A DNA stretch of 64,000 bases, taken from Naegleria gruberi. Its lineage: Eukaryota. Both the position numbers and the translations under genes were made by a program. Location of the stretch: the NCBI GenBank assembly GCA_000004985.1, contig GG738847.1. One strand, 5' to 3'. This document shows, piece by piece, positions 10,708-38,858 of the stretch (its first letter is position 1; every line of letters starts with the position of its first letter). The notes beneath the pieces were generated by a model that worked only from the letters and a program-made list of their open reading frames with translations, ran no database searches and had not been told where the DNA came from.

Positions 10708-10733
10708 TTTGATTTTACTGTACATTGTGTTAT

Positions 10734-14050: not shown

Positions 14051-14070
14051 TTCATGGCTCGCCACGTTTA

Positions 14071-14416: not shown

Positions 14417-14951
14417 ACTTTACAATATTCTTACCACACAACACAATAACTCTCAAAAAGAACAATCATCTCTCAAGTGTTCATTCATCTTATGTTTCAC
14501 TTATATATGATGATATCAATATCTTTTTCAATCATTACATATGATATCAAATGATTTGTTTTTATGTAAAAAAAAAGAATTCTCTATATCTCTAGTCATA
14601 AAAGGCGTTTATTCAATGAATATTATGTTTGTTCCTCACTCACTTTTCATTGTTTTATGAAAATGATGAAGGGGTGTTTGAGGTATTTTAATGTTGAATC
14701 TGTTGTGCTGATGAAATTAGGTCCTCACAAATGCCATCATAAACTGCTACAAGTCAGCCATCACTATCCCTTTAAAAAAAACAACTCAAAAAAATTTTCC
14801 AACAACAACTACCCCAATTATCCAACAAATTTGCGAGAGGTATCTCAGTCCCCAGTAAATTTTAGACAACTTTATACATTGGATAATACATCACCTAAAC
14901 TAGACTAATCCTCCCTCACTTTACGAATATATAACATCATCCTTCTTCAAC

Positions 14952-16510: not shown

Positions 16511-16854
16511 GTGAAGGAAGAATAATTTATCACTGCATCTATTTAGAAAATCCTAAACATTCTTGTAATTCATATTAATCCTCACCAATTTTGCATTTCC
16601 ACTCATTATAATCTCACTAAGTTGTAGTTTTAACAATAAAAATCCAAAACAAATTATTTAAAATACCTTTCGTTTTATTAGCCGTTCGCCATTTACAGAA
16701 AAGGTCCTTACTAAACTTTGTTTTTGCCTTTGTGAACTATCAGCAAAAATGTTCTAAAACGATTCTGAGCGTTTTGGGAAATGTTGTCATTAATTAATTT
16801 TGATAAAATGCACCAAAATATACAAATAATTTGAAAAGAATATTTCTAGTTTAT

Positions 16855-19433: not shown

Positions 19434-22400
19434 TCACATCCACATTTCCTTTACAAGTCTTGACATGCCTTTTTCAAATTCTAATAAGAATATTTCCTCT
19501 GGAGTTTTACCTTCGTATTCATTGACAATGATAGGCTGTGGTGGTTCTTCATGTGTAACATTTACAGGAGTAGTTGTCTCAGTAAGTGGGTCATCCTCAG
19601 AATCTTCATCATCAGAAAGTTCAATTACTCTTTGTTCAACAACTGAAGAATTAGCATTATGGCCCTGTTGTTGGGAGGAAGGTTCTGACTTCTTATTGTC
19701 AACTGGTTCTTGTGTTTTGTTTTTGGACTTCTTTGCATCTTGTTGCTGTTTTTTCTTATTCTTGCTCTTGGAACCTTTCTTATTCTTCTTATTTTTCTTC
19801 TTTGGGTCTTCCTTTGGTGCTGTTGGCTGATCTTCTTTCTTTGTGGAATCACCTCTCAACAAATGTGAAATATCCTTCACTATTAATGGTTCATTATAAA
19901 CATTCTTTTGTGGTTTAGGTGGAACAGTATTTGTTGGCTTTGGAGAAGTAATTTTCTTATCATCCACTTGTTGATTATTCTTGCCATTGGCAGATGTACC
20001 CTTCTTGTCTTGGGACATGCCGACGATTCCAATACCAAGTATACCATTCATCAATTTAGAATAAAAGTCCTCATTAAAATCATTTGGAAGTTCTCCCTTC
20101 TTTTTCATTTCCATAAATCTCATAGTTTCCTCCCTAATTATTTCTTCTCTACTATTTCCATTTGATGATGGTTGTTGTGGTGGTTTAATTGATTTGATAG
20201 GTTCTGTCTGGATTGGTTTTGGTGGTTCAGAAACATCATGCCTAGAATCTAAGAAATTCAAAATCTTAAACTTGGTAAATACAAATTCACTAATATTGTC
20301 ACCATAGTCATTCAAGGTGATGTAAAATGTCCTAGCTTTTGCACTGACATCTCTCAGTGCCTCAAATTTACTATTAAATATAATATCTGTTAAAATTTCT
20401 TCACCCTTGTTCTTTTCAAATCTCTTTCTTCCACTCTCAAATCCCAATAATCCAGTCATTGTATTAATTGAATTGTATTGAAGCTCAATCAAGCTCATGT
20501 CAATTCCTGGCTTTCCAAAGGGACTATTAGGATTGGGTACCTTTTTAATAATATCCAATAAAAGCTCCAAATATCCTTTTGATATCAGTGTATTATTCAC
20601 TTGTTCCGAAATTTGTTTTAGTAAGAGAGGTTTTCCCCAACATTCAGGATTTTGACAACTATTACCAATGGTAATAATGGCAAAATTTTTAGCTTCCACA
20701 TCAATAATTTGATGGGAAAGCTTATACAATGCAATTAGTGTCTTTTCATCAGAAACTATTGCTTCCTTGACATCAAAATTCTCCACTGAAAGGTATGCAT
20801 AACATTGGGCAATATATACAGCTTTGACAACTGGCATTCGTTGAACAGCCAATGATCTAGAGACTTGTAGTAATATTGGAGATAGAGCCACAAGTCCATT
20901 CATTTCATAAATAGTTCTGCTAATATCTGAAGAGCCTCCTCTTGCAATAGAAGCAAGAGCAGAAACAGAGGCATCCAAAAGGTCACATAATTGATGATCG
21001 CACTCTCCAATGTCAAGAATTATATAATCGATCAAGGAAAGTTGTTGAATGATTTGTCTTAGAGCATCGCCATCCTCATATTGCACAATTCTTCTCCTGA
21101 GTGAACAATCAGTATCCACACTACACAAATCAGTTACTGCTCTTGTTGAGAAGAGTTTCAATTCTTGATCATCCCACAAACACAGAGAATCCAATATACT
21201 ATCAATACCATTTAAAATTAGAGATCGTTCCTCCTCTTCCTTGAATATTTCCTCCAGAACACTCTTGTTTTCCTTCTTATTTTGTATGTCTATTTTATCA
21301 AAATCTTCTGACATGGCCCTAGAGCATTCATTTACTGCACTAGCAATATAATCTACGAGTAATACTGCGCCCATACTCCTACAATTTATATCAGTGGGAG
21401 ATGAGGCAAGACAATAAATGTCCAAAATATTTAATCCAAAATCATTCTCATCATTTACAAGATCTTCGTCGTAATCGGTAAAGTTTTCAGAATTTTGAAA
21501 TTCCATCTCATTGGATATTTCTTCCATTGAAGGTTTATAACCAAAAACTTCTGCACATTTTTTCTTCTCATACTCCACAATAGATTTAGCATAATAATCA
21601 CAATATTTACAAATATTAACTACTGATTGTTCCAAGGCATCCAAATCACTTTTGGTTTTGTTTTGTTTCTTTGACATTTCATTAATATGATATGATGTTC
21701 CATGTAGAGTTCTCAGGCTATCAAAAACATCCTCCTTACTTCCCAAAAGTAATGTAAAGTCAATATCACACTTGTGTGAATGTCTTCCATTATTATTTTG
21801 ATAATTTTTTTCCTGGGAATCCATTTGTGAATTGATACTGACTTGTTCTAAAAGTGCTGTGAAATTCATATATGCTTCCTTATATTTCTTCATGCATATA
21901 AGAGCATGTCCTTTAATTATATAAGCCTTTTATAATTATTTTGATGAATTTTAAATTGATTGAATAAATATGAATATTAAATATTAATATAATACTTACT
22001 GAATGATAGGAAGAATTTTGTCGCAGAACTGAATCACAATCCACAACTGCTTTAGAATATACATGATGTCCGATAAATGCTATGGCTCTCAAAATATACA
22101 ATGTAAAGGTACAAGGAGAAAGTGGAAGAGAACTTGAAGAACAAGAAATATCATGAAAGCCCAGAGATGAGTGTAAATCCTGCCTATGTTGGTCATCATC
22201 AAAAAGTGTTGATTCCAATATAAAAGGAGGTTCCTGTGTTTGACAATTTTGTAGATCATCCAAGACTCCTCCTTCTTCATCATCCTTCACTATGGTAACA
22301 TATAAATTTTGTTTCAAACCGAGAGAGGTTGTAAAACATCCTATAGCAATTTCATACTTTTGATGATGAAGAAATGAAATTCCTTTAGTGTAGCCTGCAA

Positions 22401-22716
22401 TTATCTTTTTCAATGCAAACTTTTTTCGTTGTTCAAATATTGTGTTTGGTGTGGAATTATCCATTATATTCTGTTGGTCCATATTATCTGTTGATGATGA
22501 CACTACTAGTGATGATGAAGTTTCTATCATTTCTCGAGAAGGTGATGATGAATTTGCCTTTTCATGTTTGGCATTACTATGATTTTGTTGTGTAGTATTA
22601 TTATTATTATTTGATGATGTACTATTCTTTCGTTTTGGTGTTTGCTTTTTCGATTTCTTCTTATTTGCATCACCTTTTTGTTTTGATGATGACTTGGAGT
22701 CGGAATTGGATGGCAT
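19434..22716 (-). CDS. TPR-like/armadillo-like protein of about 1080 aa. Exons 22000..22716 (ATG at 22716) and 19434..21926. Intron 21927..21999 (GTAAGT...AAG, 73 nt). The ORF track split it into two ORFs.
   Basis: The upstream ORF runs straight into a GTAAGT donor after ...RQNSSYHS. The acceptor restores the frame into AYIIKGHALICMKKYKEAYMNFTALLEQ, completing a TPR-like helix pair. The C-terminus is a K-rich basic tail. Confidence 0.68.
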
Positions 22717-22878
22717 TTTATGTATTTTTTATTCTTGATAACAAAAATTGATGAGGGAAGACATTGCTTTTTGATCTACGGCAATAAGATTGATAATTTA
22801 TTAGTGGTCTTTCATTACTTCATAAACTATATTATAAATTAATAATAATAGCCATTCAATAATTCTTTAAAAGAAAAA

Positions 22879-24276
22879 ATGAGTTTTGATGGTTTTGAAG
22901 AAATTGCAAGCACGTTGATTCAAGCCAATCACGTGAAACAAGCTTTGCAAGCTGTAAACAAACAGCAAAAGATGTACAAAACACTCCTCTCACAAAGACA
23001 ATTACCAAAGGAGGGATTTTCGGATCAACAGATTGAGTCCTTGCTTTCCTTCTTTGCATCAATGGATACGAATAATTATGAAAATCATATCGGAATTGGA
23101 GAAAGAGAAGGAAGAGTGTTTAGTAAATTGGTGGAAAAGAGACACTTCTACCTCAGTCATGGTATTGGAAGATCTGGAGAATTAACATCAAATCAACCAA
23201 AAGCAGCTGGATCCTCTATTATTTTACAGTTGTGTAACTATCTTGTCAATCATGCAATTCAATTAGCAGGATGTAAAAATGTAAAGAAATCAATTGTTGT
23301 GCCAATGTGTACAGGAATGACACTTGCCTTGTGTCTGAGATCCTTGGCCAACAGTTTGGAACAGCCCAATAAGAAGTATGTCATTTGGCCAAGAATAGAT
23401 CAACAATCTGTCCTCAAATCTATTGACACTGCTGGATTTACACCAATAGTCATTGAGAATGTTTTAAATGAGGATGGATCTATTGAGGCAAATCTACAAT
23501 CTATTGAAAGCAAGATACAACAAGTTGGAGCTGAAAATATTTTGTGTGTCTTGTCGACAACAAGTTGTTTTGCACCTCGAGTTCCAGATGATGTTTTTGA
23601 AATTGGAAAGATTTGTTTCAAGTATGGAATTGGACAAGTTGTAAATAATGCCTATGGAGTTCAATCAAAAATAATTATGGAGAGAATTAACAAGACAATT
23701 GCCAGTTCAAAATCAACCATTACTTGTTTCGTTCAGAGTACTGATAAGAACTTTATGGTACCTGTCGGAGGAGCTGTTGTTTCCAGTGGTAGTGATATCA
23801 CCTTTATTGATAAGGTGTCGAAAATATATGCAGGAAGAGCATCCATGACACCAATTCTTGACCTATTCATCACTCTTCTATCAATGGGTAAAGATGGATG
23901 GGAGAAGCTTCTCGCAGAACGAGAGGTGCTATTTCAACATTTTGTTTCTGAGATTGAATCCAAATTAACCAATACCCAATCTAAATTTTCCTTAATACGA
24001 GGCTCTTTACAGAGAAACCAAATTTCATTTGCTCTTTCCATTGATTTACCAAAGGAGGAGGCACTAAAGGTGGGCGTATCGCTTTTTTACAGAAATTGTA
24101 CTGGTCCTCGGGTAGTTCTGAAAGGTAGCTCAAAAACAGTACTCCCCCATCTTTCATTTGTTGGATATGGTTCTCATACTGATTCCTATCCTCATCATTA
24201 CATTACGCTTGCTTGCGCTATTGGTATTGAAAAGGAGGAAATTGAATCCTTCTTAACCTTGCTTAATAAAGTTTAA
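22879..24276 (+). CDS. SEPSECS: O-phosphoseryl-tRNA(Sec) selenium transferase (SepSecS, SLA/LP family), 465 aa, single exon
   Basis: GIGEREGRVFSKLVEKRHFYLSHGIGRSGELTSNQPKAAGSS, WPRIDQQS, STTSCFAPRVPD, VNNAYGVQS and the PLP-lysine context STDKNFMVPVGG align closely with SepSecS along the whole length. Confidence 0.9.
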   Translation: MSFDGFEEIASTLIQANHVKQALQAVNKQQKMYKTLLSQRQLPKEGFSDQQIESLLSFFASMDTNNYENHIGIGEREGRVFSKLVEKRHFYLSHGIGRSGELTSNQPKAAGSSIILQLCNYLVNHAIQLAGCKNVKKSIVVPMCTGMTLALCLRSLANSLEQPNKKYVIWPRIDQQSVLKSIDTAGFTPIVIENVLNEDGSIEANLQSIESKIQQVGAENILCVLSTTSCFAPRVPDDVFEIGKICFKYGIGQVVNNAYGVQSKIIMERINKTIASSKSTITCFVQSTDKNFMVPVGGAVVSSGSDITFIDKVSKIYAGRASMTPILDLFITLLSMGKDGWEKLLAEREVLFQHFVSEIESKLTNTQSKFSLIRGSLQRNQISFALSIDLPKEEALKVGVSLFYRNCTGPRVVLKGSSKTVLPHLSFVGYGSHTDSYPHHYITLACAIGIEKEEIESFLTLLNKV

Positions 24277-24520
24277 TCAAGACTACAATATATCTCACAT
24301 CATCCCGCGTACAGTAAGATACATCATTATACTACCGTAATAAATAAAATATTGGTCGGCCGAACTGCAATGATTGTTACCGGAATTTCTACCGGTCATC
24401 GCTCCTTCTATGTGTGACCATTCATGACATTGAGGGGTGTTGTGATGTTCACAAACAGACAAATCCTCAATGTTATTAAGGGCGGCGTAACTAGTTGAGA
24501 GATTCGTTGATAGGAAAAGA

Positions 24521-25030
24521 ATGTCTCAATGTTCTAGTGCTTCATCAGAGAGGTCGTTTGTTATTTCTTCTTCACTTTCAAATCATTGCCAAGCAAGACA
24601 AGAAGAATTTGAAGAAAATCTCGAAGAGAATACTATTATAAGCAATAGTGTAGATTTATTTTCTTCATCAACAACCTTATCAGCGAGCAGCAGAGATGAT
24701 GAGGATACTGATGATGACACTGAGAATGACTTGGATAACGATTCATCATCCACCACTGCTTCCAGTAGTATAGCAATTCCTTCTTCCCCCAAGAATTGTT
24801 ATCAAGATAATTTAATGGGTCCCTTCTCCTTCCCTCCCAAGACAAATATTCGTCATCATGAGCAACAACATCGTCATCGTCGTTCATTCATGAATGCTGC
24901 ATCAGACAATCGCAATACAACAATAACACACGCGTTGAATCATAGACCCTTCATCCACACACACAGAAACAGACCCTCTAGAATATTGGTATTTGATGAG
25001 TACAATAACGGAGATCAAGGGCAGGCTTAA
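24521..25030 (+). CDS. Hypothetical low-complexity acidic/Ser-rich protein (169 aa); may not be real
   Basis: ATG-initiated ORF with mixed codon usage and no recognisable domain. Confidence 0.3.
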   Translation: MSQCSSASSERSFVISSSLSNHCQARQEEFEENLEENTIISNSVDLFSSSTTLSASSRDDEDTDDDTENDLDNDSSSTTASSSIAIPSSPKNCYQDNLMGPFSFPPKTNIRHHEQQHRHRRSFMNAASDNRNTTITHALNHRPFIHTHRNRPSRILVFDEYNNGDQGQA

Positions 25031-25546
25031 TATCCAAAAATCTGTACTGACTCACCTTAATAAGATTCTCAATGGTAGCTTTAAAAATTTTGGAGATTTT
25101 CAGATTCTGACAAAATACTGATACTGATCAAGAATACCTTATTGAACAAATTGAGAAGCCAAATACAAGATTTGATTAAATCACATCTCTAATCAGATCC
25201 TGTTTATTAAATAAAAAAAACAATTTTGAATTAATTTACATTGATTGTTCTTGAATATTGTAAACATCTAGTTCACTGATAATGTTGAAATGATATTGAT
25301 CAATTTGGTTCAAGTAATTGGGTGTTGAGTTTCATGTTTTAGGATAACACTCATTAAAACTTCACTGCACCCATCAAAATTTATTATTTTTTAGTGTGAT
25401 GATGAATGGAAACTCGTCCATCATATCGATGTTGTCATCTAACTTCTGTCAGACATCACTATTCAAAAAAAAACCTCTCTTCACACCAACACCATCGATC
25501 AAGCAAAACTGTTCGATATTTACACAACACAAAATAATAATTCATC

Positions 25547-27836
25547 ATGTCTACCAAACGAGGAAAGGAAGCCATTCTCAAATTCTGTCAACGTGCCTGT
25601 CAAGAACGTGGCGTTGAAGTAAAGAATTTATCAACATCTTTTGCTGATGGTTTGGCATTTGCTGCCATCGTTGATAGTGTATGTATTGATTCTTTTAACA
25701 TTCCCTAACCTTCCTCTTTCACTTTTTTGTATTCTATATATGATTTAACTCTTTCTAACATTATAGCAAAGACCAGAACTCTTGACAAACATGGGTTTAA
25801 CTTTCAAGACCATCCAGGATGATTTTGGTCGTGTTGAAAGACTTCAATGGGCTTTCGATCAAGCAGAACAATTGGGCATTCCACGTCTATTGGATCCAGA
25901 AGATATCGATCCAGAAAAACCAGATGAAAGATCCATCATTACATATCTCTCGGCTGTTTATAAATTCTTTAAGGAAAATGCAGGATCAGGTGCTGCTTCT
26001 TCTGAACAACAAGCCTCCGAAACAACTTCTGCCGCCACTTCTCCAGAAGCTACTGCAGCAGAAACAACACCAATTGAACAACAATCAACTACAGAAGAAA
26101 ATGGCGCCACTTCTACTACTGAAGAGGCTGTGGTTGTAGAACCAACTGCTGCTACTGCTGAAGAGACACCAGCTGCTGTTGTAGAAGAGACACCAGTCGA
26201 ACCAACACCTTCACCAACAACTGAAGAGCAACCAACTGAAGAAACAACTCAACAACCAACTGAAGAAGCTACTGTCGTTGAAGCTGTTGTTGAGTCTGGA
26301 ACTAATGAACTTGTTGCTGAAAAGACTGAATTGACTGATGATGAAAAATTGATTTTACAAGATAATACTGAAGTTCATGTTGATGTTGTTACTCCACAAC
26401 CAAGTGTTGAAGAAACTTTCCCATCTTCTCTTTCCACAACTGCTAGTGCTGGAGGTGCTTCAATTGCTGAAGAGCAATCACTCTCAGAAACTAAATCAGA
26501 TAGCTCATCTGATTCTGAAGAAGAAGAATCTGTTCCTGTTGTTGATAAAAGATCACCACGTCGTGTTACTGAAAGAGTTGCAAGTGTTGTTTCTCAAGTT
26601 ACTGCAACAACTCCAACTAGAGATTGGTCCTTTGATGATTCTGATGATGAGGATAATTCATCTCGTGGTCGTAATACTGGATCTTCATTGGCTTCTCAAG
26701 AAAGAGTTAATGAATTGAGAGATAAGATTGAACAACTCAAGCAAAATGTCAAGCAAGAACAACTTGATAAGGAACGTCTCAAGAAGCGTGAAATGGAATT
26801 GGAAAATGAACTTCAAAAGTATTTGAATGATTTGAAACGTGCTCGTTCTGAAGTTGAAGAAGCCAAATTGCAAGGAAAGCAAGAAAAGGAGTTGGAATAC
26901 GAAGCTCGTCACAAGGTTGAAATTGAAAAGTCTAACCTTTACAATGAAAACAGAAAGTTGTTGGAAACTATTTCTGATTTGGAAAGACAAGTTAGAGAAA
27001 ACCAACAAGGTGAAAAGTCATTGAATAAGGATATTCAAAAATTGCAAAGAACTATTGAAAAACTTCAAGCTGAAAAGAACAGTGAAGTTGAAGACAAGCT
27101 CAGATTGGAAAATGACGTTTCTGATTTGAAGAGACAATTAACTACTGTTACTTCTCAATTCAAGACTTCCCAACAAGTTAGCTCAAATGCTGAACTAGAA
27201 TTACAATCATTGAAGAACTTCTTTGAAAAGGAAAAGAGAAACAGAAAGTTGCTCAACCAAGAAATTAAGGATCTCAAAGGTGAACGTGATGCATTGACCC
27301 TTGAATTGGAAGATGTTCGTGATGAAATTCACAAGTTTGAAATCCGTATCAAGGAAGTTGAAATGGAAAAGGAACAAGAAGCTAGAAAACTCAAAGTTGA
27401 ATTGGAAGAAAGAGTTAATATGGATAATCGTATGAAGCAAATCAGAAAGGACGTTACTGACATGAAGTACAAGGTTGAACAAGAAAGACAAAACGTTCTC
27501 ACTGTTGAAGCTCAAAAACGTAAGCTCGAAGAAGAACTTGCTCTTTCACACACCAAGTATGACCAATTACAACAAGAATTCTCTGCTATGAAGAGAGAAG
27601 TCAAGAAGGCCGAACGTGAAGTTCAAAAGGCTGAAAAGAGAGCTGACACTGAAGAACAACGTTCAAATGAATTGAAGGTTCAACAAAATCAATTGCGTGA
27701 TGAAATTCGTCAATGGAAAGAAAAGGTTACAAAGGCTGAATTCGAAACTGACAAGGTCAAGAGAGAAAAGGAAAGCCTTGAAAGAACTATCAGAGAATTA
27801 GAGTTGCAACTCTCATTCAAATCAAGCAGTTTTTAA
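25547..27836 (+). CDS. Calponin-homology (CH) domain protein with T/E/P-rich linker and long C-terminal coiled coil (733 aa). Exons 25547..25678 and 25767..27836. Intron 25679..25766 (GTATGT..TTCTAAC..TAG).
   Basis: AILKFCQRACQERGVEVKNLSTSFADGLAFAAIVDS|QRPELLTNMGLTF...ITYLSAVYKFF is a CH domain. The C-terminal 400 aa form heptad-rich E/K/L coiled coil. Confidence 0.8.
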
Positions 27837-27874: not shown

Positions 27875-30800
27875 TTATTGTTGTTCTTGATTAAGATTGA
27901 CTTGACGAGCTTGATTTTCATTGATAGAGTAAATATCTACCATTTGGAGTGGAATTGGATTAACTCTACGCTTTGATTCTTGTTCGGTTGGGACTACAAA
28001 TACGCTCTTCTTGCCTTCCTTTGGATCTTCTTTAATTTGAACCTTAATATAATATCCTCCATCCTTATGCTTAACAATATTTGCATGGTGAAGCATTGGA
28101 TCATCAGAAATTTGACCATTGTTAACATAAGGTTCTCTTGGAAGTTGACCAACAGGGAATCTCTCTGGTTTTGGTTTAATTTCACCTCTTGGATAAGCTC
28201 TATTATTTGCAGGTTCAACAGTTGGAGGATAATTTTTAAATGTTGCTTGATTATCACCCGGATATGGATTACTAACGTAATTTGTTCTTGAATCAATATA
28301 TGAAGCATTGTTTCTTGCCTCTGAATAACCATTATTTCTTGATTCTGAATAGGCATTATTTCTAGTTTCAACGTAAGAGTTGTTTACGCGCAAGTTATTA
28401 TTGGCTTGACTATTGGATTGGTATGAACTGCTTTGCATTTGAGTACTTGAAATCTTATTATTCATACCAATATTCAATGTGTTTGGAAGATCAGGTCTAA
28501 CAACAGGTTCTTGAGATCCATCATTAAAGTAAGTCTTATAAGTTGTTTCATAAATACCAACTGTTGAGGCTTTTCCATAGCCTGAATAATCAATTTCAGA
28601 ACTCACATTCTTCAATCTATTTTCAGCAACTTCATTTCTGGCAACATATGTGCTTGCAACTTTTGGTTTTTGATTTTCAACAACAATTGAAACTGGTCGA
28701 ACAATTTCCGGTTTTTGTGGTTGTTCATATACTGGAGGGTCAAATCTTGGAGGACTGATATAATCATTAACTGGAACAACTCTTGGAGGAGTTTCATAAG
28801 AGTTATTATTGGATTGAGCAAATTCATTTCTTTGTCTATTTTCAACAACTCTACTTTCAACAACAGTGGCCTTATTATTATTACTAATACCAACAAAATC
28901 GCCGTCAACTCTCCAAACAGGACCTGAACTGATTGGGAGAGGTTGTTCTTGAGTACCATCATTCTTATAATAGGTCTTGTAAGTTGTTTCATAGGTTCCT
29001 GTTGTTGATTTACCATAGTTAGAATGGTCAATTTCTGTAGAGGAATTCTTCATTCTGTTTTCATTCATAGCATTAACTGATTCAACTCTAAGGTTAAGAT
29101 TGGCTTGTCCTGTAACTATGTTATTTCTATCTTGGACAATTGATCTCTCATTGTAATAGACAATGTCGTTCTTCTTATTGTTATCAACTACGTATGAAGA
29201 ATCTGTTTGATTATTATAGCTGGAAAGTTGAGATTGTTCATGCATGTATTTTTCTTGCATTCTGTACGCATCTCTATTTTCAACATATTCTTCATTAATA
29301 TAAGAATCATTGACAACTCTTTCAGGAATTGGTTGAGGGATTGGTTGAGAAACGACTTGCTGTGTCATAATTGGCTTTGGAATTACAGGAACAATTGGTT
29401 GATGAATGACTGGTTGCGAGTTTGTTTGTGGAGGAGGAACTGAAGATCTATTAACAACTTCAGTAACTCTTGCTGCTTGGTCAGTGTTAACATAGTTCGA
29501 TGAATTGTTATGAACAACTTTTTCGTAGTATCCTTCATGTTGATCATTCATGTCAGTCATTGAAGATTGGTTATGGATAACAGACTTTTCAATATTGACA
29601 CGTCCATTATCATTAACAGTTTTAACAATTTCAGATCTGGAGCCATTATTATCTGTAACAGTTGTCTTGACTGTTTCATAGGAACTGTAATTGTTGTTTT
29701 GTCCACTCTTATTATTGACAACTTGTTCTGTTTCAACAGTTTTAGTTTCCAACTTGACAGCAGTGGTATTAGCACCCTTTGTTATATCAATATTTCTATC
29801 ATTAGAGCTCTTATTAACAACAGTCTTGGTTTCAGACTTAGTTTCAGTTGATTCAACGGACTTTCTATTTTGGTTTGCATTTTCTGGAGGTGTTCTCTTA
29901 ACCTTTTTAGCTTCGGTCTTCTTCTTGGCTTCGGTCTTACTCTTGGCTTCAATCCTACTCTTAACTTCATTCTTAGAATTAGAAGCAACCTTTTGCAAAA
30001 CGTGTTTACTTTCTTCTGTCTTTGGGGATGGCTTCTTAATTAATTGAGGTTCAGATTTAGTCTTCTTAGTTTCAGGAGCTGAAATACTTCTACTTGGGTT
30101 TGCCATTTTAACTGGTTTAGCTTCTTGTCTTTTAACAATCTTCCCAGGTGGTGAACCATTTCTTGCTCTATTGTTTACTGCCTTTACAATTCTTTCATTT
30201 GCTTGCATTCTTTCTTGATTAACATCTTTTTGTTGTTGAAGGAGGTTATTTTTTGATTTACGTTCATAAAAATTGATTTTTCCATTATTATTATTCTTAG
30301 CTTGTTCATTCTTGTTGTGGTAGTGTGTCTTTGTTTCAGTTGTAATTTTGCCATTATCATTAATTTCAATTGTGATTTCAGTTCTAGTACCTCGCTCATC
30401 AGTGATAGTTCTCCTTGTTTCCTTCTTTATAATGTTATGTTCAGAGAATTGATTATTCTTTGAACGATTATTGACAACTGCTTCTTGGTTGTTGTAACTC
30501 TCGTCATAATCTTCAGAACGTTCAACATTAGTTCTTTTTCCATTCACCAATGTACTCTTTTCAACATTAACCTTTCCATTATTATTCACACCCTTAACTA
30601 TTTCTGTTCTTGTTCCATTTTCATCTGTAACTGTACGCTTTGTTTCATAAGTGCTGTAGTTGGAAGATTCTGAATCATTCTTCTTGGCTTTCTTTTCCAC
30701 CACATAATTTTCTTCCTGTTGGTTATTCTTTGATTGGACCTTAATAGGTTTCTTTGGTTTTGGTGGAATGAATTGTGGTTTTTGTTTGACAACCTTTTCT

Positions 30801-33800
30801 TCAACCACATAAGAAGGTTCTTGTTTAACAACCTTTTCAACAATTGTTTCTTGTTGTGGGATGAACTTTGGTTGTTGCTTTACAATCTTTTCTTCTTCAA
30901 CAATTTGACTGTGTTTCTCTTCAGAATGAATTCTTTCGTCATAGGAAGATCTCCTATTAATATTACCATTGTCATTAACTTCCTTTACAACTTCAGTTCT
31001 TGTTCCATTATTATCACTAACAGTTTTAGAAGACTCGAATGAGCTGTAACTTGAACTCCTTGTTCTGGAACCATTAAGCTTATCTTCAGTAAAGTGTTCT
31101 GGAAGAGACAGAATGTTTTTAGATGAGGTGTGCATAGTTTGGTGTATTTCTTGTTTTGGTTCATAGCTATTCTTTGATGTGACGATCTTTTCTTCATCAT
31201 AATCTTCTGTTGCAAAAAGTTGATCTTCAACGCTCTCCTCGACAGCTTCTTGTTCTTTTTCTACAACATATTTAGCAGAATCTTTTCTGATAAATCTTGG
31301 TTCTTCAATATGTTCTTCAACTTCATTTTCTTCGATGTATTGAGATTTTTGCTTAATCAATGGCTTACTTGGTTTTGGAGGGCTAACTACCTTTGGAACA
31401 TGTCTTGGTTCATCTATTAGCTTTTCTTCGACACGTTTTGGCACATGATGAATTGCAGTCTCTCTTGGCTTTGGGCTAACAACCTTTGGAAGATAAACTG
31501 GTTCATCAATCTTTTCTTCAACCTCATAGGAAACGTGTTCGACAGTATCTCTTGGTGAAGGAGAGAATTCATTTCTTTGTCTAACAATTTTCTCTTCTAC
31601 TATTGTTTCTTGTGGTGTTTCTTCTACAGCCTTTTCCTCTACGTGGAGCAATGCCTCTTGGTCATAATGTTGAGTCTCTCCATAGCTAGAAGTTACTCTA
31701 CTCCTGCCAGTGCTTCTTCTTGCAGAAGCATATGATCTTCTGGATGAACATTTGGATTCCTTCTCCTTTTCGGATAATTCAGTCAAGAATGGAGGAGCAA
31801 AGTAATCATCACTAGTGCTTTGTTTTGTAATGAAAGTGCTGTTAAACTCTTCTTGAGCAATTGGTGCAGTGTTCTTTGCATGATTACTAACTGCTTGTTC
31901 TTCTTCAATCATAAAGGATGGTTCGACATATTCTTGCTTTACAACACCAGCCTTCTTGTCATTTTCATAAACACTCTTTTCAATATTAACTTTTCCATTA
32001 TCGTTCACTCCCTTAATAATTTCTGTTCTTGTTCCATTATTGTCACTAACAGTATTTGAAGATTCATAAGTACTATAGTTTGTGTAGAATCCACCAGTCT
32101 TTAATCTGGCATCGCCAAGATGTTCTTGAGTTAAAATCTGACCATTATTATTAGATGATTCATAAGTACTATAACTTGTACTATATCCAGTCTTGATGGC
32201 TCTGACATCACCATGATGTTCCTGAGAAGAATATTCCCCGGTATGAAGATTTCTGGAAGCATTAGTAACACCTCTATCATTGTTCATAGCATTTGGATAA
32301 ACATCATAACCATTACCTGAAACAACCTCAGAGTGACCATTTTGAGAAAACACCTTTTCCACATTGACTTTACCATTGTCATTGACCCCTCTTATGGTTT
32401 CAGTTCTCGTTTGTCCATTTTCATCAGTGTAAGTTCTTGTTGTTTCATAGGTACTATAGTTATTAGAATAGCCAGCATTCGAATTGGTTCTATTTTGAGC
32501 AGCAGAAACAGCAACAAGTTCATGCTTTTCACGGCTTCCTTTAGAAGAGAATGGCGATTCAGTTCTTGAAGATTTGCTGCTTTGGTTTCTTGAACCATAC
32601 GTATTAATCTTGTTTGTGTAATATTGGGCATTACTGTTTGAAACAGTTCTTGAGTACTCATTGAAATCTTCATTATGATAGTCATCCAATGTTGTTGACT
32701 CTTGATTCATCTCATCAACTGTTTGGTGATATTCATACCCTCTGTTAGTTTCAGAGTGGGATTTCATAAATGGTACATGTTCATGTTGCTCACGAGCATA
32801 ATTAATAGCTTGCCTACTTCCGTGAGAAGAGGAATAATGACTACCTTTAAAGCTACTACCTCTACTGTATTCTCTTTTTTCTTCTTCACTGTTACTTCTA
32901 CTGGTGAGAGTACGATAGCTTCCTGTATCCTTAATATCAGCCATTGACCTCATATGTTCGTAATTGACAACAGAATGTCCTCCTTCTTTAGTCTCTGTTA
33001 TCATTTGTCTATTTTGCATTTCCTCGGTGCTGACAAAGGTACCACCCTCTTTCCTATAGGCATGAGCACTGGTTGTTTGTCTTGCCACTCCTTCCAACAT
33101 ATTTTGATTGCTTGCATATTGGCTATCAGACGAATTGGTTGTTGTATTGGTTGTGGTGGTTACAACTTTCTTACCTCCATTCTTCTCTAACATTTCAATA
33201 TCAGTGTCGACAGCTTTTGCCACCAACATGATTGTCCCGTCCTTCATTCTCTTACCAACGTACACTACCTTCTTTTTGACAACTACATCTTGTTGGTATT
33301 TCTTCTTGTAATAGCAGCAGCATACGGCCACACAAATGAATGTAATAGTAAAAACACAACAAACCAATAAGATACCACCTGCAACGCAAATAATGATAAT
33401 ATAGGAAACATAGGTGACGGTAGTTGTTTCCATCACGAAAACATTGGTCAAATGATTACATTTACATTTAACAAGTGAAGAATTCAAGGAGGTGTAAGTG
33501 CAATTTGTTGTGGAAAAAGTTGCCAAGCTTGCTGCAGAATCTTCAAAATTAGCACAGTAGAAAATTCTTGATTGAACTACATATGAAAATGATTGTTGAG
33601 TTAGGTCATGAACAATGTTGGTGGTATTCACTGGAATGATATATTCTATACCTTCCCCATTAAACGAGACAGGATTATCAGTAATGGCAAGAGAGACAAT
33701 TGGAGAAACGGCACTTGATAATTTGTAAGTAGATGGTAAGCTTGTCTTGAGAGGGGTGTTCAACTTCTTGTTGAGACCAATGATATCATCAGAAACAATT

Positions 33801-36800
33801 AAAGCATGGGCGAAAGGCTTTGTAATAATTGTTGTCTGAGGTGAGAAGAGAGAAGTAGAGATGGATGTAGATGATTCAACTTGTAAAAGAGTTGCTTGAT
33901 AATTGTATAGAGTACTCTTTCCAACAGTTGAATGGTAGAACGACCCTCTGACATATTCTGGATAATTTACATTGATTTCTCTTGCTCTCAAAAGAGAGAA
34001 TTTCTTCATAATTCTAAAGACCTTGATACCGTTAGAATAACCTCCTCCATTTCTATCATAAATATAATGATATACATTATTTAAACATTTGATCAAGAGA
34101 TTATAAAGTTCAATAGGTATTCCAAGATCTGAAACTAATAAGGCATCATCCATAAATTTGTCCAAAGTTGTTAAGGCTTGAGAAATTGTTATGTTACTGA
34201 GATATGGATAGTTTGTTATGAGAGAATCTATGGCAATAGATACCATGATGACATAATCTTGATCAACTACAACATTAGTTCCATTGAAAACTTGGAGCAT
34301 GCTTCTCAATAGCGTTGACTTATCCATTTGAATATTATCATATTCGGTCACATGAACATCACAATTGTTTCCTACATATCCATCGGCGCATTTACAAGCT
34401 CCAGATGTTGTTTGTATACCATTTGTACACTCCTTTGCAGTGGAGAGTAAATCGAGCCCATTAAGAGCAGAGTTGAGCAAAACAGAATCAATTTTTGAAG
34501 TTGCAGATGATTGATAGAAACTCTTTCCAAAAGCACCAGAAGTGAGATATGAATCACTTAAAGAATTAAAACCTTGTGACTTTTCTAATACAAGGGTGAC
34601 ATTTGAAGCTACTGCAGGTAAAGTTACAGTAATGTCCTTGTAAATTGTCGTTGTTGATTCAGTGGTAACATCAATAATATCAAAGAAAACGGTTACCTTA
34701 TTGGAAAGTGTTGGACCTGGCAATTTAGTAGAAAAGAAATTACCCTTATTGTAGAGAGAAACTTTTAAATTGGCTCTATCATCTATATAACCAAACCTAA
34801 AATCTATATTATTGATCGAGCTCTTACAATTCAAACAATAAAACTGAAATTGTGATTCCATAGCACTACCACTGGTTGGTGAAATGTCACAATTACACAC
34901 TTTTGGAGAGATGCCCACTTGGAAGTTGTAAGTTAGTTGGGTGGATTGACTGATTGTTCCGTCGTTAACCACTACTCGCAAAACATTAGAAGAACCTTCT
35001 GTTAACTTAGAAGAATCAACCTTTACAGTTTGAGATGACCCTGATTGAATTATTCCTGAGTATAAAGTAACGCCGTTCAAACTCCATGTTGAATTTGTCT
35101 TGTCAGAGAAAGATGTCACAAATATTTGTGAGACGAAATTCTTTCCTGGAGCTATTACTGACGATTTTGGTTCAATTGTAACAAAGTTTACAACTGGAGG
35201 AATTGTTTGAAAATAAATGGTTATGCCCTTGGTTATGCTTCTCATATCTGACTTTACAATTTGGAGAGAAATATCAACGGATCTTGGAATGATATCGAAT
35301 AAAGAAGTGGAAACTGTAAAGTAAGTCTTTTTGGTGTTGGAAATGGCACTTAGTAAGGTGAGAAGACGAGGAGAGGTATTATCTAAACAGGTCCAGGTCC
35401 ACGTCTCTGATGAGAGTGTGTTGAATATTGATTCTGGATCAGAATAGTCAACTTGAACTGTTGTGTAATCTGATTTAGCTTCATATTTCATCAAGTTCAA
35501 AATTAAATTAGGAGATTGAGTGTTGAGTGTAATGATACTTGATGTCTTTGTGCTTTGATCCAAAGCATAATATGCGGAAACTTTAAATGTATATGTATTA
35601 CTACCAAATGTTGTCAATTTTGGAATAAAAAGATCATTATATGAATCTACATTATATGCAACACTTGGTCCACTCAATTGAGACCATTCGACCACTATTG
35701 TATCACCATTAGCCCTACAGGATGAGTGCTCAACAAATTTGTTAATCAGTAATGGAAATTGATTTGAGTATTTAGTCAGAGTGTATTGATCCTTTGCAAT
35801 TGTTAAAATTGGCAATACTTTTGTTGATTTCACAAAAGTACTAGAGTAAACTATGATACTATCCTTACTGAGGTATTCACTTCTTACTTGAAGTCTCATC
35901 TTGTAACTTCCGGCAGCGAGAGAGGAATCCAAAGTAATAAAGGCGCTATTAGCAAATGATGTGGATACCACACTCAAAGATGATGAATCCACCACTGCCC
36001 AGTTGTAGGTTAATGCCTTTCCATCTACCGAATAACTTTGAGAACCGTCAACAAGAATGGTATCACAAGAACTGAAGGTATCTACTGCTGGAAGTCTTAT
36101 TGTTGCTATTGGTGTTGCAATAACTGCTGGTGGATTAATAACAAAACTCAAATATGTTATAGTATTAGAAGATGTGGAATTATCAAAAGCACCGGCATTA
36201 ATTCTCAAATTACTAACCCCAGATTGAAGAGAAAAATCAATTGATCCAAACTTGATGAGAAAACGATACGTAGACTTGTCCAAGTAAAAACATCTCACAC
36301 TCGCACTGGTTCCATAAAGATCTCCAGATAAATCAGATGGATGTAAAACTTTGGAGCATGAGAGTTCAGAACCAGTAAAAGATGAAGGGGAATGAAAGAC
36401 GAATGAAATTCCTCTAAAGTCATCAGTTATTGTAGCAGGACCCGCAGCAGATGTGGCACATTTCTCTCCGTAGTATCCATTTTTACATGTATTACATGAA
36501 GCTCCCGTCCAATAACCTTCATCAGCATTGGAGTAACAAACACATGAATCAGAGACATCACATTCTCCATGACTTGAACAAGTTGTTTCTTTTGAGCATG
36601 CAGTGATTTCTTTTGAGTTGTATCTCCTTGTTGTTCGTCGTGGAGTGAATGAAACACCTTTCAAGAGTATATTTCCACCTTGTCCAACAATATACACCTT
36701 ACCGTCAATCTGTGTACTGGTGATGGAGGAAAGTTCATCAGTGAAGAGTTTACCCTTGAATACGCCACCTCTTATTTCACTTGATTTTGCGACGAAAACC

Positions 36801-37480
36801 AGATTATCAATTGAAGCATGTCTTGAGAGTTGGACATCCAAATGGTCAATAATGAGTCTTCCTTCTTCACTATTTGGAAACTTAAGAACCACCTCCTCAC
36901 TCCCCTTTACCACCAGGGTTGGTGGATTCACTTCGTTTGTTTGTGCAGCAAACCATCCATTCTCAAAGCAATAAATATTGCCTCCCTCAACTTGTAAAAG
37001 TGGCAAGTTGGAATCTGATGATGAAAATGTAAAATCGCATGGAGTGTCCATATATTGAGAGTAGGTTTTCCTTGCTGATGAATAAAGTTGTGTGGAGAGC
37101 TGGTCTCCATAGTGGAAAGAACCTCCGTTTTCAGTTAAGAATTGATGAGGAGATAATAAGCCTATCGACGAAACACTTGCTCCACTCACTTTTAGCGAAC
37201 AAGTTGAATCAACATGAACAAAATTTTGACCATTAACAAAGACATATTCTGCTAATGGGTCTTCTACTTTTGATGAACAAAACTTGCCACCAAATCCTGA
37301 ATAACAAAGACAAGTATCTTGATATGTACAAAAACCATGTCCTGAACAGACCCTACTTTTTTCACTCGAGTCTATTCCATTACATGTATATGAAAAAACT
37401 AGTCCTAGATTTAATAATAATAATAATAAAACGGTCGCTAACTTTGCCATTAAGGCTGGCCAGCGCAAATTCCTTGTCAT
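27875..37480 (-). CDS. Giant single-pass membrane receptor (about 3200 aa): signal peptide, EGF-like modules, REJ/PKD-like region, GPS motif, one TM, and about 1400-aa repetitive cytoplasmic tail. Single exon.
   Basis: The ORF track start at 37561 is TTG. Real ATGs lie at 37480 (MTRNLRWPALMAKLATVLLLLLLNLGLVFS) and 37450. EGF-like: CSGHGFCTYQDTCLCYSGFGGKFC, CNTCKNGYYGEKC, CKCADGYVGNNCD. GPS: VKCKCNHLTNVFVM, directly before the TM IIIICVAGGILLVCCVFTITFICVAV. Confidence 0.8.
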   Translation of the reverse strand: MTRNLRWPALMAKLATVLLLLLLNLGLVFSYTCNGIDSSEKSRVCSGHGFCTYQDTCLCYSGFGGKFCSSKVEDPLAEYVFVNGQNFVHVDSTCSLKVSGASVSSIGLLSPHQFLTENGGSFHYGDQLSTQLYSSARKTYSQYMDTPCDFTFSSSDSNLPLLQVEGGNIYCFENGWFAAQTNEVNPPTLVVKGSEEVVLKFPNSEEGRLIIDHLDVQLSRHASIDNLVFVAKSSEIRGGVFKGKLFTDELSSITSTQIDGKVYIVGQGGNILLKGVSFTPRRTTRRYNSKEITACSKETTCSSHGECDVSDSCVCYSNADEGYWTGASCNTCKNGYYGEKCATSAAGPATITDDFRGISFVFHSPSSFTGSELSCSKVLHPSDLSGDLYGTSASVRCFYLDKSTYRFLIKFGSIDFSLQSGVSNLRINAGAFDNSTSSNTITYLSFVINPPAVIATPIATIRLPAVDTFSSCDTILVDGSQSYSVDGKALTYNWAVVDSSSLSVVSTSFANSAFITLDSSLAAGSYKMRLQVRSEYLSKDSIIVYSSTFVKSTKVLPILTIAKDQYTLTKYSNQFPLLINKFVEHSSCRANGDTIVVEWSQLSGPSVAYNVDSYNDLFIPKLTTFGSNTYTFKVSAYYALDQSTKTSSIITLNTQSPNLILNLMKYEAKSDYTTVQVDYSDPESIFNTLSSETWTWTCLDNTSPRLLTLLSAISNTKKTYFTVSTSLFDIIPRSVDISLQIVKSDMRSITKGITIYFQTIPPVVNFVTIEPKSSVIAPGKNFVSQIFVTSFSDKTNSTWSLNGVTLYSGIIQSGSSQTVKVDSSKLTEGSSNVLRVVVNDGTISQSTQLTYNFQVGISPKVCNCDISPTSGSAMESQFQFYCLNCKSSINNIDFRFGYIDDRANLKVSLYNKGNFFSTKLPGPTLSNKVTVFFDIIDVTTESTTTIYKDITVTLPAVASNVTLVLEKSQGFNSLSDSYLTSGAFGKSFYQSSATSKIDSVLLNSALNGLDLLSTAKECTNGIQTTSGACKCADGYVGNNCDVHVTEYDNIQMDKSTLLRSMLQVFNGTNVVVDQDYVIMVSIAIDSLITNYPYLSNITISQALTTLDKFMDDALLVSDLGIPIELYNLLIKCLNNVYHYIYDRNGGGYSNGIKVFRIMKKFSLLRAREINVNYPEYVRGSFYHSTVGKSTLYNYQATLLQVESSTSISTSLFSPQTTIITKPFAHALIVSDDIIGLNKKLNTPLKTSLPSTYKLSSAVSPIVSLAITDNPVSFNGEGIEYIIPVNTTNIVHDLTQQSFSYVVQSRIFYCANFEDSAASLATFSTTNCTYTSLNSSLVKCKCNHLTNVFVMETTTVTYVSYIIIICVAGGILLVCCVFTITFICVAVCCCYYKKKYQQDVVVKKKVVYVGKRMKDGTIMLVAKAVDTDIEMLEKNGGKKVVTTTTNTTTNSSDSQYASNQNMLEGVARQTTSAHAYRKEGGTFVSTEEMQNRQMITETKEGGHSVVNYEHMRSMADIKDTGSYRTLTSRSNSEEEKREYSRGSSFKGSHYSSSHGSRQAINYAREQHEHVPFMKSHSETNRGYEYHQTVDEMNQESTTLDDYHNEDFNEYSRTVSNSNAQYYTNKINTYGSRNQSSKSSRTESPFSSKGSREKHELVAVSAAQNRTNSNAGYSNNYSTYETTRTYTDENGQTRTETIRGVNDNGKVNVEKVFSQNGHSEVVSGNGYDVYPNAMNNDRGVTNASRNLHTGEYSSQEHHGDVRAIKTGYSTSYSTYESSNNNGQILTQEHLGDARLKTGGFYTNYSTYESSNTVSDNNGTRTEIIKGVNDNGKVNIEKSVYENDKKAGVVKQEYVEPSFMIEEEQAVSNHAKNTAPIAQEEFNSTFITKQSTSDDYFAPPFLTELSEKEKESKCSSRRSYASARRSTGRSRVTSSYGETQHYDQEALLHVEEKAVEETPQETIVEEKIVRQRNEFSPSPRDTVEHVSYEVEEKIDEPVYLPKVVSPKPRETAIHHVPKRVEEKLIDEPRHVPKVVSPPKPSKPLIKQKSQYIEENEVEEHIEEPRFIRKDSAKYVVEKEQEAVEESVEDQLFATEDYDEEKIVTSKNSYEPKQEIHQTMHTSSKNILSLPEHFTEDKLNGSRTRSSSYSSFESSKTVSDNNGTRTEVVKEVNDNGNINRRSSYDERIHSEEKHSQIVEEEKIVKQQPKFIPQQETIVEKVVKQEPSYVVEEKVVKQKPQFIPPKPKKPIKVQSKNNQQEENYVVEKKAKKNDSESSNYSTYETKRTVTDENGTRTEIVKGVNNNGKVNVEKSTLVNGKRTNVERSEDYDESYNNQEAVVNNRSKNNQFSEHNIIKKETRRTITDERGTRTEITIEINDNGKITTETKTHYHNKNEQAKNNNNGKINFYERKSKNNLLQQQKDVNQERMQANERIVKAVNNRARNGSPPGKIVKRQEAKPVKMANPSRSISAPETKKTKSEPQLIKKPSPKTEESKHVLQKVASNSKNEVKSRIEAKSKTEAKKKTEAKKVKRTPPENANQNRKSVESTETKSETKTVVNKSSNDRNIDITKGANTTAVKLETKTVETEQVVNNKSGQNNNYSSYETVKTTVTDNNGSRSEIVKTVNDNGRVNIEKSVIHNQSSMTDMNDQHEGYYEKVVHNNSSNYVNTDQAARVTEVVNRSSVPPPQTNSQPVIHQPIVPVIPKPIMTQQVVSQPIPQPIPERVVNDSYINEEYVENRDAYRMQEKYMHEQSQLSSYNNQTDSSYVVDNNKKNDIVYYNERSIVQDRNNIVTGQANLNLRVESVNAMNENRMKNSSTEIDHSNYGKSTTGTYETTYKTYYKNDGTQEQPLPISSGPVWRVDGDFVGISNNNKATVVESRVVENRQRNEFAQSNNNSYETPPRVVPVNDYISPPRFDPPVYEQPQKPEIVRPVSIVVENQKPKVASTYVARNEVAENRLKNVSSEIDYSGYGKASTVGIYETTYKTYFNDGSQEPVVRPDLPNTLNIGMNNKISSTQMQSSSYQSNSQANNNLRVNNSYVETRNNAYSESRNNGYSEARNNASYIDSRTNYVSNPYPGDNQATFKNYPPTVEPANNRAYPRGEIKPKPERFPVGQLPREPYVNNGQISDDPMLHHANIVKHKDGGYYIKVQIKEDPKEGKKSVFVVPTEQESKRRVNPIPLQMVDIYSINENQARQVNLNQEQQ
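28530..32480 (-). repeat. Intragenic tandem protein repeats in the cytoplasmic tail of the giant receptor (at least 8 degenerate units of about 35-40 aa)
   Basis: Repeated units: NYSTYETKRTVTDENGTRTEIVKGVNNNGKVNVEKS; YSTYESSNTVSDNNGTRTEIIKGVNDNGKVNIEKS; YSSYETVKTTVTDNNGSRSEIVKTVNDNGRVNIEKS; and terminal YETTYKTY(Y/F)xNDG(T/S)QE units. Confidence 0.6.
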
Positions 37481-38858
37481 TTTTTTGTTTGCTGACCGTA
37501 ACAAACTAAGCTTTAAACTTTCACAAGACTTTGTGAACAAATTAAGGTGGAGCGTTTCCAAACGAGGCCTCTTCAGTTACTTCTGCACTCGATAACTTAG
37601 TTTCCTTCTCCGATCCCAATACTTCCTTAAGGGAATTGATGCCTTGTTAGATTTTCGGTTACTGATATTCTCGCTGTGTTTTTTTGCCGCAACAATCAAT
37701 TCATCACTTCCCTTAATTTTTTCCTCTTTGTAGTTTAACCAACGCCAATAATAATGTAAATAGGTTGTGTAATCATTGACTGAATAGGAAACTTGAGACA
37801 TTGGCTAAAAAACTTAATGAAATATATTTCATACCTCACCTAGAAATCAAGGCCTAAAAGCTAAGTTGACTTCTAATTAGAAGGCAGGAGTGATTTTTTT
37901 TTTTCTCTGGGGTTTTCTATTGAAAATCAAATTAGAAGTGGAAATAAATGGTAATCTTGCTCAAACTCAACATAACAAACTGGGAAATTCTTTAACTGGC
38001 ATTGATGAAAAAAGTTCTGATGAACTATTAAGTTTCCACCTTTCTTCAAGTCATTTCGGTATAGAATTCATTCTCTTTACTAAACTATTTTGAACAAACA
38101 CTTTATGGAAGTGCCGCTCAATAAAAAGTACCTCAATCATTACTAACAACAAACAAAATAACTTTTCCATCTTTGTTGATAACAATTACTAATAATATGA
38201 TCAATAAAACTGTTCCATCCTTAATACTTCAAAGGGTCAATATAAATTACCAAAGAAACCATTTTGTATTGATGCGGATCTTTTAACACTATTAACAGAT
38301 TTTATCTACCCTTTCCTATGCGCGTCATGGTTCAACATTGAGAAAAACTCATCACCAATAACGACAAATAAGAATTGACGATGCTTTTAAATACAAAAGT
38401 GGCTCCTCTAGCTGATTGTGTCTGCTTTCACCCAACAAGTCCAAGTTACTTGGCGTTTTTGTTTGCATCTCCCTGATGTACTTGTTGTTAACTTGCGTAG
38501 AATAATTAGAGAAAAAAAACAACGCAACTTTGCAGGTATTGAAGGTATAAATCACAACAACAAGCCTTTGAAAAATTAATTGATACTCTGCGGTTTGGAT
38601 TCAACCTCAAATACCAATCATACAACAATAGTACGAGAGTGTGTGAACGCATTGTTTAAACTTGTTTCAAGTATCTTCATAGTCACCGTTTAATTCTCTC
38701 TTCGAATATATTAGCATTTTGTGATCAAACAAGCCTTCCGAAATTTACCCTCTTTGATCATCACAACCACCACATTTTGTATACTACTGCTACCAATCGC
38801 TAATACTTCCATCAAATCTCCACACAATTGTAACATATAACTCTCCTAGGAATACACC

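Follow-up and report, generated by a model that had tools for sequence, protein, structure and literature searches.

A dispersed 36-residue repeat with a predicted three-stranded beta-meander fold in the inferred cytoplasmic tail of a Naegleria gruberi REJ/GPS-type surface protein

MORN repeats (PF02493) are cytoplasmic repeats of beta-hairpins with Gly in the turns; they assemble into flat sheets without a core and serve as protein-interaction or membrane-proximal modules. WW domains (PF00397) are autonomous cytoplasmic three-stranded meanders of ~35-40 residues that recur as docking modules within one protein. The closest described systems also include single-layer beta-sheet repeats from surface proteins of bacteria, namely, the G5 domains in IgA1 protease and SasG and the OspA central sheet. 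At the level of whole receptors, integrin beta-4 is a single-pass adhesion receptor with a very long cytoplasmic tail, in which beta-rich modules and linkers dock cytoskeletal adaptors. In this work, we analyzed 64,000 nucleotides of Naegleria gruberi DNA (contig GG738847.1 of assembly GCA_000004985.1; hereafter, the window) and found a 36-residue repeat unit, present as six full copies and one truncated copy, in the inferred cytoplasmic tail of a giant protein with REJ-like and GPS-like regions. Judged from sequence searches, the unit is a new, orphan sequence family. As a kind, it is a small beta-hairpin repeat in an interaction-prone tail, which is already exemplified by MORN, WW, and similar modules.

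As predicted, the unit would resemble MORN in being a cytoplasmic beta-hairpin repeat with Gly in its turns. However, MORN is a strict tandem of 23 residues with the signature YxGxWxxGxxxGxG, whereas the Naegleria unit has 36 residues, is dispersed, and has neither this signature nor a Pfam match. Compared with WW domains, the size, the predicted three-stranded meander, and the repetition within one protein are alike. The differences are that WW domains carry two Trp ~20-22 residues apart plus a Pro, whereas no Trp occurs in any Naegleria unit and a single one in the 1,811-residue tail; the strands of the Naegleria unit are also about twice as long, and no Pfam match to WW was obtained. The likeness to the cytoplasmic domain of integrin beta-4 is a functional analogy only, namely, small spaced modules in a long tail; the modules of integrin beta-4 are fibronectin type III domains of ~90 residues with a proper core and have no sequence or fold relationship to the unit.

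A profile built from the clear copies retrieved six full units, all on the minus strand and in frame, with 67-83 bits each (r1 and r3-r7 in Table 1) and starts at residues 1698, 1826, 2168, 2298, 2374, and 2621 of the open reading frame (ORF). For a leave-one-out test that avoids circularity, every unit was scored by a profile of the other five, and the held-out units reached 38-75 bits; of 2,000 random 36-mers with the composition of the tail, none scored above 15.7 bits. The BLAST E-values from unit to unit range from 1e-8 to 1e-20. The score of the truncated copy r2 was matched by none of 500 shuffles, and a 13-residue scrap of the unit (NNNGKINFYERKS) is also present. The six full copies and the truncated one are spread over ~970 residues of low-complexity, charged, proline-rich tail. 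The units are sharply bounded islands within unrelated linker; the 36 residues on each side of the core are 6-9% identical between copies, and 7.1% is expected from composition. An earlier note on this DNA, made from the sequence alone, had described at least eight tandem repeats of a ~35-residue motif interspersed with basic and proline stretches. Both the motif and these stretches were found where it had placed them, in frame within one minus-strand ORF. The count has to be lowered to the six full copies plus one truncated copy, and the arrangement is dispersed rather than tandem, with 76-347 residues from one start to the next.

The alignment of the six units has nine invariant columns (E9, T13, D16, G19, R22, E24, N30, N32, and G33). 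Two x-N-G-x turns (D-E/N-N-G-T and N-D-N-G-K) lie 13 residues apart, and outside these turns there is a strand-like alternation of charged residues with Thr, Val, and Ile. The layout of the unit is thus strand 1 (YSTYETxRTVT), turn D-x-N-G, strand 2 (TRTEIVKxVN), turn D-N-G, and strand 3 (KVNVEKS). Counted outward from the first turn, the invariant D16 faces the invariant R22, and these two residues likely form a cross-strand salt bridge between strands 1 and 2. AlphaFold2, given the six-row alignment, predicted strands at positions 5-15, 21-31, and 34-43 with a mean predicted local distance difference test (pLDDT) score of 80. Because of the two invariant turns, the D16/R22 pair, and this model, a three-stranded antiparallel beta-meander is well indicated but not secure as the predicted fold of the unit. 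The proposal that the unit is beta-hairpin-like, which had been made from the letters alone, agrees with the two conserved Asn-Gly turns and with the modeled meander. The structural neighbors of the modeled meander include protein-contact sheets (those of MKLP1-Arf6 and of COMM domains), and all of these matches were non-significant.

Similar architectures have been obtained by design. Betanova (RGWSVQNGKYTNNGKTTEGR) and beta3s are designed three-stranded sheets with the same Asn-Gly turns and are only 9-36% folded (PMC2696411). These two peptides and the ENGK turn of trpzip share with the unit an antiparallel meander on two-residue Asn-Gly turns (QNGK and NNGK there; ENGT and DNGK here), and the designed sheets are likewise polar and rich in Thr, Lys, and Glu, with hardly any hydrophobic core. 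They differ in having 20 residues, whereas the strands of the Naegleria unit have ~10-11 residues each and the unit is encoded six times and is subject to purifying selection. The designed sheets and the unit are not related by evolution.

The reading frame that carries the units is open without interruption over 27875-37561 on the minus strand, and its first Met is at 37480. The order of elements in the host protein is signal peptide, EGF, REJ-like region, GPS motif, one transmembrane segment, and a tail of ~1,800 residues. The ectodomain is Cys-rich, has a teneurin-type EGF match in Pfam, and is homologous to EGF/REJ proteins of Naegleria lovaniensis (E 2e-94 in a search of 5.8 billion proteins). 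About 870 ectodomain residues align at 25-29% identity with N. lovaniensis proteins that carry Pfam REJ; for example, host residues 322-1196 are 28.6% identical (E 1e-81) to one protein that carries PF02010 (P0001), and no direct Pfam REJ match to the host was found at E up to 1. The Pfam GPS match on the CKCNHLTNVF region has 17.4 bits (E 0.0064) against a cut-off of 22.5 bits and is therefore sub-threshold. With the REJ/GPS membrane proteins, such as polycystin-1, sea-urchin REJ, and Naegleria EGF-REJ proteins (including C9374_002875 of N. lovaniensis), the host protein shares its ectodomain, namely, EGF repeats, the alignment to proteins that carry Pfam REJ, and a membrane-adjacent CxCxHLT. 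However, polycystin-1 has 11 membrane segments and the host protein one, the Naegleria EGF-REJ homologues found end ~35 residues past the membrane segment, and none of the REJ/GPS proteins compared has the long tail or the repeat of the host protein.

Because the signal peptide, the Cys-rich ectodomain, the CxCxHLT motif, and the sole transmembrane segment all precede the tail, the tail is best read as cytoplasmic. A type I topology is the natural inference from the hydrophobic segments, the composition, and the Lys residues after the membrane segment. Throughout the tail, the Kyte-Doolittle hydropathy never exceeds 0.76. Rich in N, S, E, V, and K, the tail contains one Cys, compared with 35 in the ectodomain, and the linkers between the units appear to be disordered. 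The earlier placement of the repeat in the cytoplasmic tail of a GPS receptor thus stands insofar as the only transmembrane segment of this CxCxHLT-bearing protein precedes the units. An adhesion G-protein-coupled receptor was rejected as the identity of the host; one hydrophobic segment follows the GPS motif, not seven. A Cys cluster (CVAVCCCYYKKK; 33299-33337, minus strand; ORF residues 1409-1421) marks the end of the membrane segment on the inferred cytoplasmic side. Sites of this type are often palmitoylated, and a comparable MCCMC…RKKYKKK occurs in the N. lovaniensis homologues.

The coordinates of the features of this gene are listed in Table 1.

Table 1. Features of the host gene, its repeat units, and its linker blocks; positions are counted from the first letter of the window.
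Feature	Position	Strand	Basis
Host coding sequence, intron-less, complete, 3,201 codons plus stop	27875..37480	-	ORF list and translation
N-terminal signal peptide, MTRNLRWPALMAKLATVLLLLLLNLGLVFS	37391..37480	-	One of two hydrophobic segments in the host protein
GPS-like motif, C-terminal CKCNHLTNVF, ~12 residues ahead of the membrane segment	33443..33529	-	Signature CxCxHLT read directly
Single transmembrane segment, followed by Cys cluster and Lys-rich stretch (CCCYYKKKY)	33311..33409	-	Kyte-Doolittle maximum 3.04
Tail, ~1,811 residues, inferred cytoplasmic	27878..33310	-	Composition and topology
Unit r1, YSTYETTRTYTDENGQTRTETIRGVNDNGKVNVEKVF	32348..32458	-	78 bits; held out 57 bits
Truncated unit r2, first strand only, YSTYESSNNNGQ	32138..32173	-	7.4 bits against half-unit profile
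Unit r3, YSTYESSNTVSDNNGTRTEIIKGVNDNGKVNIEKSV	31970..32077	-	83.5 bits; held out 75 bits
Linker block A, EEKIV(K/R)Q…P.F.P units, terminal PPKPSKP	31262..31642	-	Self-comparison; PxxPxK motif
Unit r4, YSSFESSKTVSDNNGTRTEVVKEVNDNGNINRRSSY	30941..31048	-	76.7 bits; held out 60 bits
Linker block B, EEKIVKQQPKFIP…, terminal PPKPKKP	30677..30922	-	Self-comparison; PxxPxK motif
Unit r5, YSTYETKRTVTDENGTRTEIVKGVNNNGKVNVEKST	30551..30658	-	81.2 bits; held out 74 bits
Unit r6, most divergent, IIKKETRRTITDERGTRTEITIEINDNGKITTETKT	30326..30433	-	67.3 bits; held out 38 bits
Unit r7, YSSYETVKTTVTDNNGSRSEIVKTVNDNGRVNIEKSV	29579..29689	-	77.2 bits; held out 58 bits
Short-type unit s1, …NENRMKNSSTEIDHSNYGKSTTGTYETTYKTYYKNDGTQE	28946..29074	-	68% identical to s3 over 43 residues, E 2e-16
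Short-type unit s3, …AENRLKNVSSEIDYSGYGKASTVGIYETTYKTYFNDGSQE	28508..28636	-	Pairs with s1 in a separate two-copy repeat

A possible function can be proposed from the conservation and repetition of the module, its strongly hairpin-like sequence, and its position in a long, probably disordered and probably cytoplasmic tail. The six units could be equivalent docking sites along a flexible tail, where each would either recruit a single copy of a cytosolic partner or pair edge-to-edge with those of neighboring tails. The tail would then be a multivalent, avidity-based scaffold or clustering device that links the cell cortex to a REJ/EGF sensor or adhesin outside the cell, with the PPKPxKP motifs of the linkers as additional docking sites. 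The linker repeats, each block of which closes with a PPKP(S/K)KP class-II polyproline motif, fit this scaffold reading. That the units act as multivalent docking or clustering modules in the cytoplasmic tail is a serious but tentative proposal that we hold to be short of probable. A more specific version, in which the unit is a natural core-less mini-domain with two Asn-Gly type I' turns (a natural counterpart of Betanova) that was multiplied within one N. gruberi lineage as a clustering or docking device of a REJ/GPS receptor, the gene of which is apparently missing from the deposited proteins, is doubtful when taken as a whole.

Several observations weigh against an autonomous fold or against docking. 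The designed analogues, which the unit resembles because it lacks a true hydrophobic core, fold only to a small extent. In the AlphaFold model of the native 161-residue r5-r6 segment, the same hairpins appear at pLDDT 50-64 and the linkers fall below 50. The unit alone may therefore be only marginally stable, and it may not fold without help. Both faces of the predicted sheet carry conserved residues, with no single binding face apparent. PxxP motifs are weakly enriched (9, versus 4.1 ± 1.9 expected).

The modest scores in native context and the apparent disorder of the surrounding tail are also what a different reading would predict, namely, that the units are disordered, phospho-regulated linear motifs, with Y-S-T-Y-E-T…T…T phosphorylated by a kinase at several sites or serving in phospho-dependent docking, and with recognition rather than folding as the reason for its conservation. 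Ser, Thr, and Tyr together number 8-12 per unit, and two of the invariant positions are E9 and T13. However, the strictest conservation falls on the two Asn-Gly turns and the Asp/Arg pair, which are structural positions rather than phospho-acceptors. Moreover, the conservation is even across the 36 residues, with beta-branched residues in strand-like alternation, and the unit alone is modeled at pLDDT 80. We regard the phospho-motif reading as unlikely.

The divergence between copies bears on whether the units have any function. Nucleotide identity between the copies is 62-78%, and no array formed by them was detected with Tandem Repeats Finder. In Nei-Gojobori counts between copies over 35 aligned codons, the synonymous sites are essentially saturated (proportion of synonymous differences, pS, 0.48-0.90; proportion of nonsynonymous differences, pN, 0.13-0.42), the ratio of nonsynonymous to synonymous rates (dN/dS) is 0.08-0.48, and the amino-acid identity is 40-80%. 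Because synonymous sites are saturated while amino-acid identity is kept, and because the flanks have decayed to chance, the cores must be under purifying selection, and the copies are old duplicates. The dN/dS values together with the retained identity also show that the repeat-bearing frame is translated. A collapse of the assembly, which the earlier note had named as a possible source of the repeat, was rejected; the DNA copies have diverged, their synonymous sites are saturated, and they form no tandem array. The same figures argue against the reading that the units are functionless, neutral leftovers, copied long ago by internal duplication within a low-complexity tail that evolves fast. 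Such an origin would agree with the lack of homologues in other species or proteins in the libraries searched, with the finding of no syntenic orthologue in N. fowleri, and with the several further repeat families in the tail. However, the 36-residue cores have not decayed as their flanks have, and neutral remnants are quite improbable at the observed dN/dS.

Searches for relatives of the unit covered several libraries. With the whole protein as query, the tail had no Pfam match at E up to 1, and with the six single units nothing passed threshold at E up to 10, with no match to MORN, YD, WW, EF-hand, or dockerin. YD/RHS (PF05593) was rejected accordingly, as was the Flocculin repeat (PF00624), which matched one of six units with 13.2 bits (E 0.11; gathering cut-off 21 bits). 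Among PDB sequences, the unit profile found nothing below E 0.68 and the whole tail found nothing. A search with the unit profile in the word-indexed library of 5.8 billion proteins gave no match. In JGI metagenomes, 138 pattern matches to the unit were obtained and none was confirmed. No copy of the unit occurs in the remaining ORFs of the window, and the unit is absent from the annotated proteins of N. gruberi, N. fowleri, and N. lovaniensis, whose proteomes are present in the libraries searched. The original impression that the unit matches no described domain, and in particular no MORN or YD repeat, is borne out by the Pfam and PDB comparisons. Two HMMER matches from an exhaustive search among 1.84 billion representatives, one to a Gram-positive LPXTG surface protein and one to a protein with fibronectin type III (FN3) repeats, were rejected as spurious sums of at most 13 bits per copy to "…DNGK…" hairpins. 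Similar searches call for caution, since the summing of 7-15 weak hairpin matches is enough to bring a short repeat profile to E 1e-8 to 1e-10 on highly repetitive proteins; the weak matches in the bacterial surface and FN3 proteins (P0006/P0007) are "TVTIGDNGKVEV" and "VRIRAVNDNGKS".

These searches also bear on two further readings. The D-x-N-G and N-D-N-G-K-V-N loops could be calcium or metal sites of the EF-hand, dockerin, or DxDxDG type in a Ca2+-responsive tail. The D, N, and E residues are invariant, and VNDNGKVN weakly resembles the dockerin loop DVNDDGKVN (4fl4, E 0.8), but this match is not significant and no EF-hand or dockerin match was obtained in Pfam. In addition, position 1 of the loop is G, E, T, or I and not Asp, Lys takes the place of an acidic residue (Asp or Glu) at position 12, the Gly of D-x-N-G stands at position 4 and not 6, and the model is all-beta without flanking helices, all of which makes a calcium loop very improbable. 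Equally far-fetched is an extracellular, Thr/Asn-rich, glycosylated stalk of flocculin type, through another topology or with the tail as a separate product: the sub-threshold Flocculin match and the sequons (N-Y-S and N-G-T in most units; 32 in the tail) would suit it, but the ORF is continuous with the signal peptide, the single membrane segment is followed by KKK as the positive-inside rule expects, the GPS motif stands directly ahead of the membrane as in other GPS proteins, the tail is nearly free of Cys, and the sequons are a by-product of an Asn-Gly turn followed by a Thr strand.

Returning to the docking reading and the predicted meander, the units would, if they fold as predicted, represent a rare natural case of a very small beta-sheet module without a hydrophobic core. 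A mini-sheet kept six times in one cytoplasmic tail would be relevant to protein folding and design, and the tail would offer a first handle on the link between Naegleria REJ/GPS surface proteins and the cell interior. To our knowledge, this family of surface proteins is uncharacterized so far, and nothing relevant was found in the literature on Naegleria REJ, GPS, or GAIN proteins. The practical value is lower, since in searchable data the repeat is limited to one protein of one species and opens no broad question; it is a neat curiosity for specialists more than a surprise.

The tail contains further repeats. The linker blocks A and B belong to a second family with the pattern EEKIV(K/R)Q…P.F(I/S)P, and each closes with a PPKP(S/K)KP class-II PxxPxK motif. 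Near the C-terminus, the short units s1 and s3 share a 43-residue pattern, …ENR(M/L)KN…SEID(H/Y)S(N/G)YGK…YETTYKTY…NDG(T/S)QE. The earlier note had reported that shorter YETTYKTY-NDG-QE units follow the longer repeats. Two such units do exist, but their membership in the same family was not upheld; as half-copies of the main unit they were rejected, since 45 and 59 of 500 shuffles reach their scores. A weaker third element (VVENRQRNEF…NSYETPP; 28787-28849) sits between s1 and s3. At the DNA level, two small in-frame tandem repeats are found in the tail, one at 28306-28363 (24 nt x 2.4, encoding SE(S/A)RNN(A/G)Y) and the other at 29910-29962 (18 nt x 2.9, encoding (K/S)KTEAK).

The genes next to the host gene identify the source as N. 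gruberi. The adjacent SepSecS gene is 100% identical to an N. gruberi protein over 465 residues (N. fowleri and N. lovaniensis, 72-73%; Willaertia, 55%), and two further neighbors are exact N. gruberi entries (EFC49611.1 and EFC49613.1). The 9.6-kb host ORF had no N. gruberi match in the search of 5.8 billion proteins, although its neighbors match at 100%. Between EFC49611.1 and EFC49613.1, there is one GenBank accession (EFC49612.1) for two genes, and one of these, probably the giant host ORF, seems to be without a deposited protein model. The other gene is a CH-domain neighbor, which was reconstructed in spliced form to assign EFC49612.1 and gave no exact match. A useful by-product of this work is that a 9.6-kb gene may be missing from the protein annotation of N. 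gruberi.

The CH-domain gene (25547-25678 and 25767-27836, plus strand) has one 88-bp intron (GTATGT…TAG) and encodes a CH domain, an acidic region rich in Thr, Glu, and Pro, and a long coiled-coil-like tail. It converges on the host gene, with stop codons at 27836 and 27875 and 38 bp between them. Synteny between N. gruberi (19434-27836), N. fowleri (10001-18505 of locus L002), and N. lovaniensis (locus L001) covers the genes for the 819-aa protein, a 267-aa protein, SepSecS, a 170-aa protein, and the CH-domain protein, with an extra F-box gene within the block of the sister species N. fowleri and N. lovaniensis. The conserved order breaks off precisely at the giant gene; the next gene after the CH-domain gene of N. 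fowleri is a GCN5-like one (acetyltransferase plus bromodomain) and not one of REJ/GPS type. The best N. lovaniensis ectodomain homologue lies in an unrelated gene neighborhood. Neither the repeat nor an orthologous tail was found in the SepSecS/CH-domain surroundings of N. fowleri and N. lovaniensis or at the locus of the best ectodomain homologue. Judged from the annotated proteins and loci searched, the long tail and the repeat look specific to the N. gruberi lineage.

Elsewhere in the window, the only Rfam matches are two transfer RNA (tRNA) genes, tRNA-Phe(GAA) at 730-802 on the plus strand and tRNA-Gln(TTG) at 14070-14142 on the minus strand. For two long minus-strand ORFs, at 19434-21893 (819 aa) and 49155-51932 (925 aa), Pfam gave no domain at E up to 0.001; the 819-aa ORF is conserved, with 58-80% identity, in both N. 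fowleri and N. lovaniensis.

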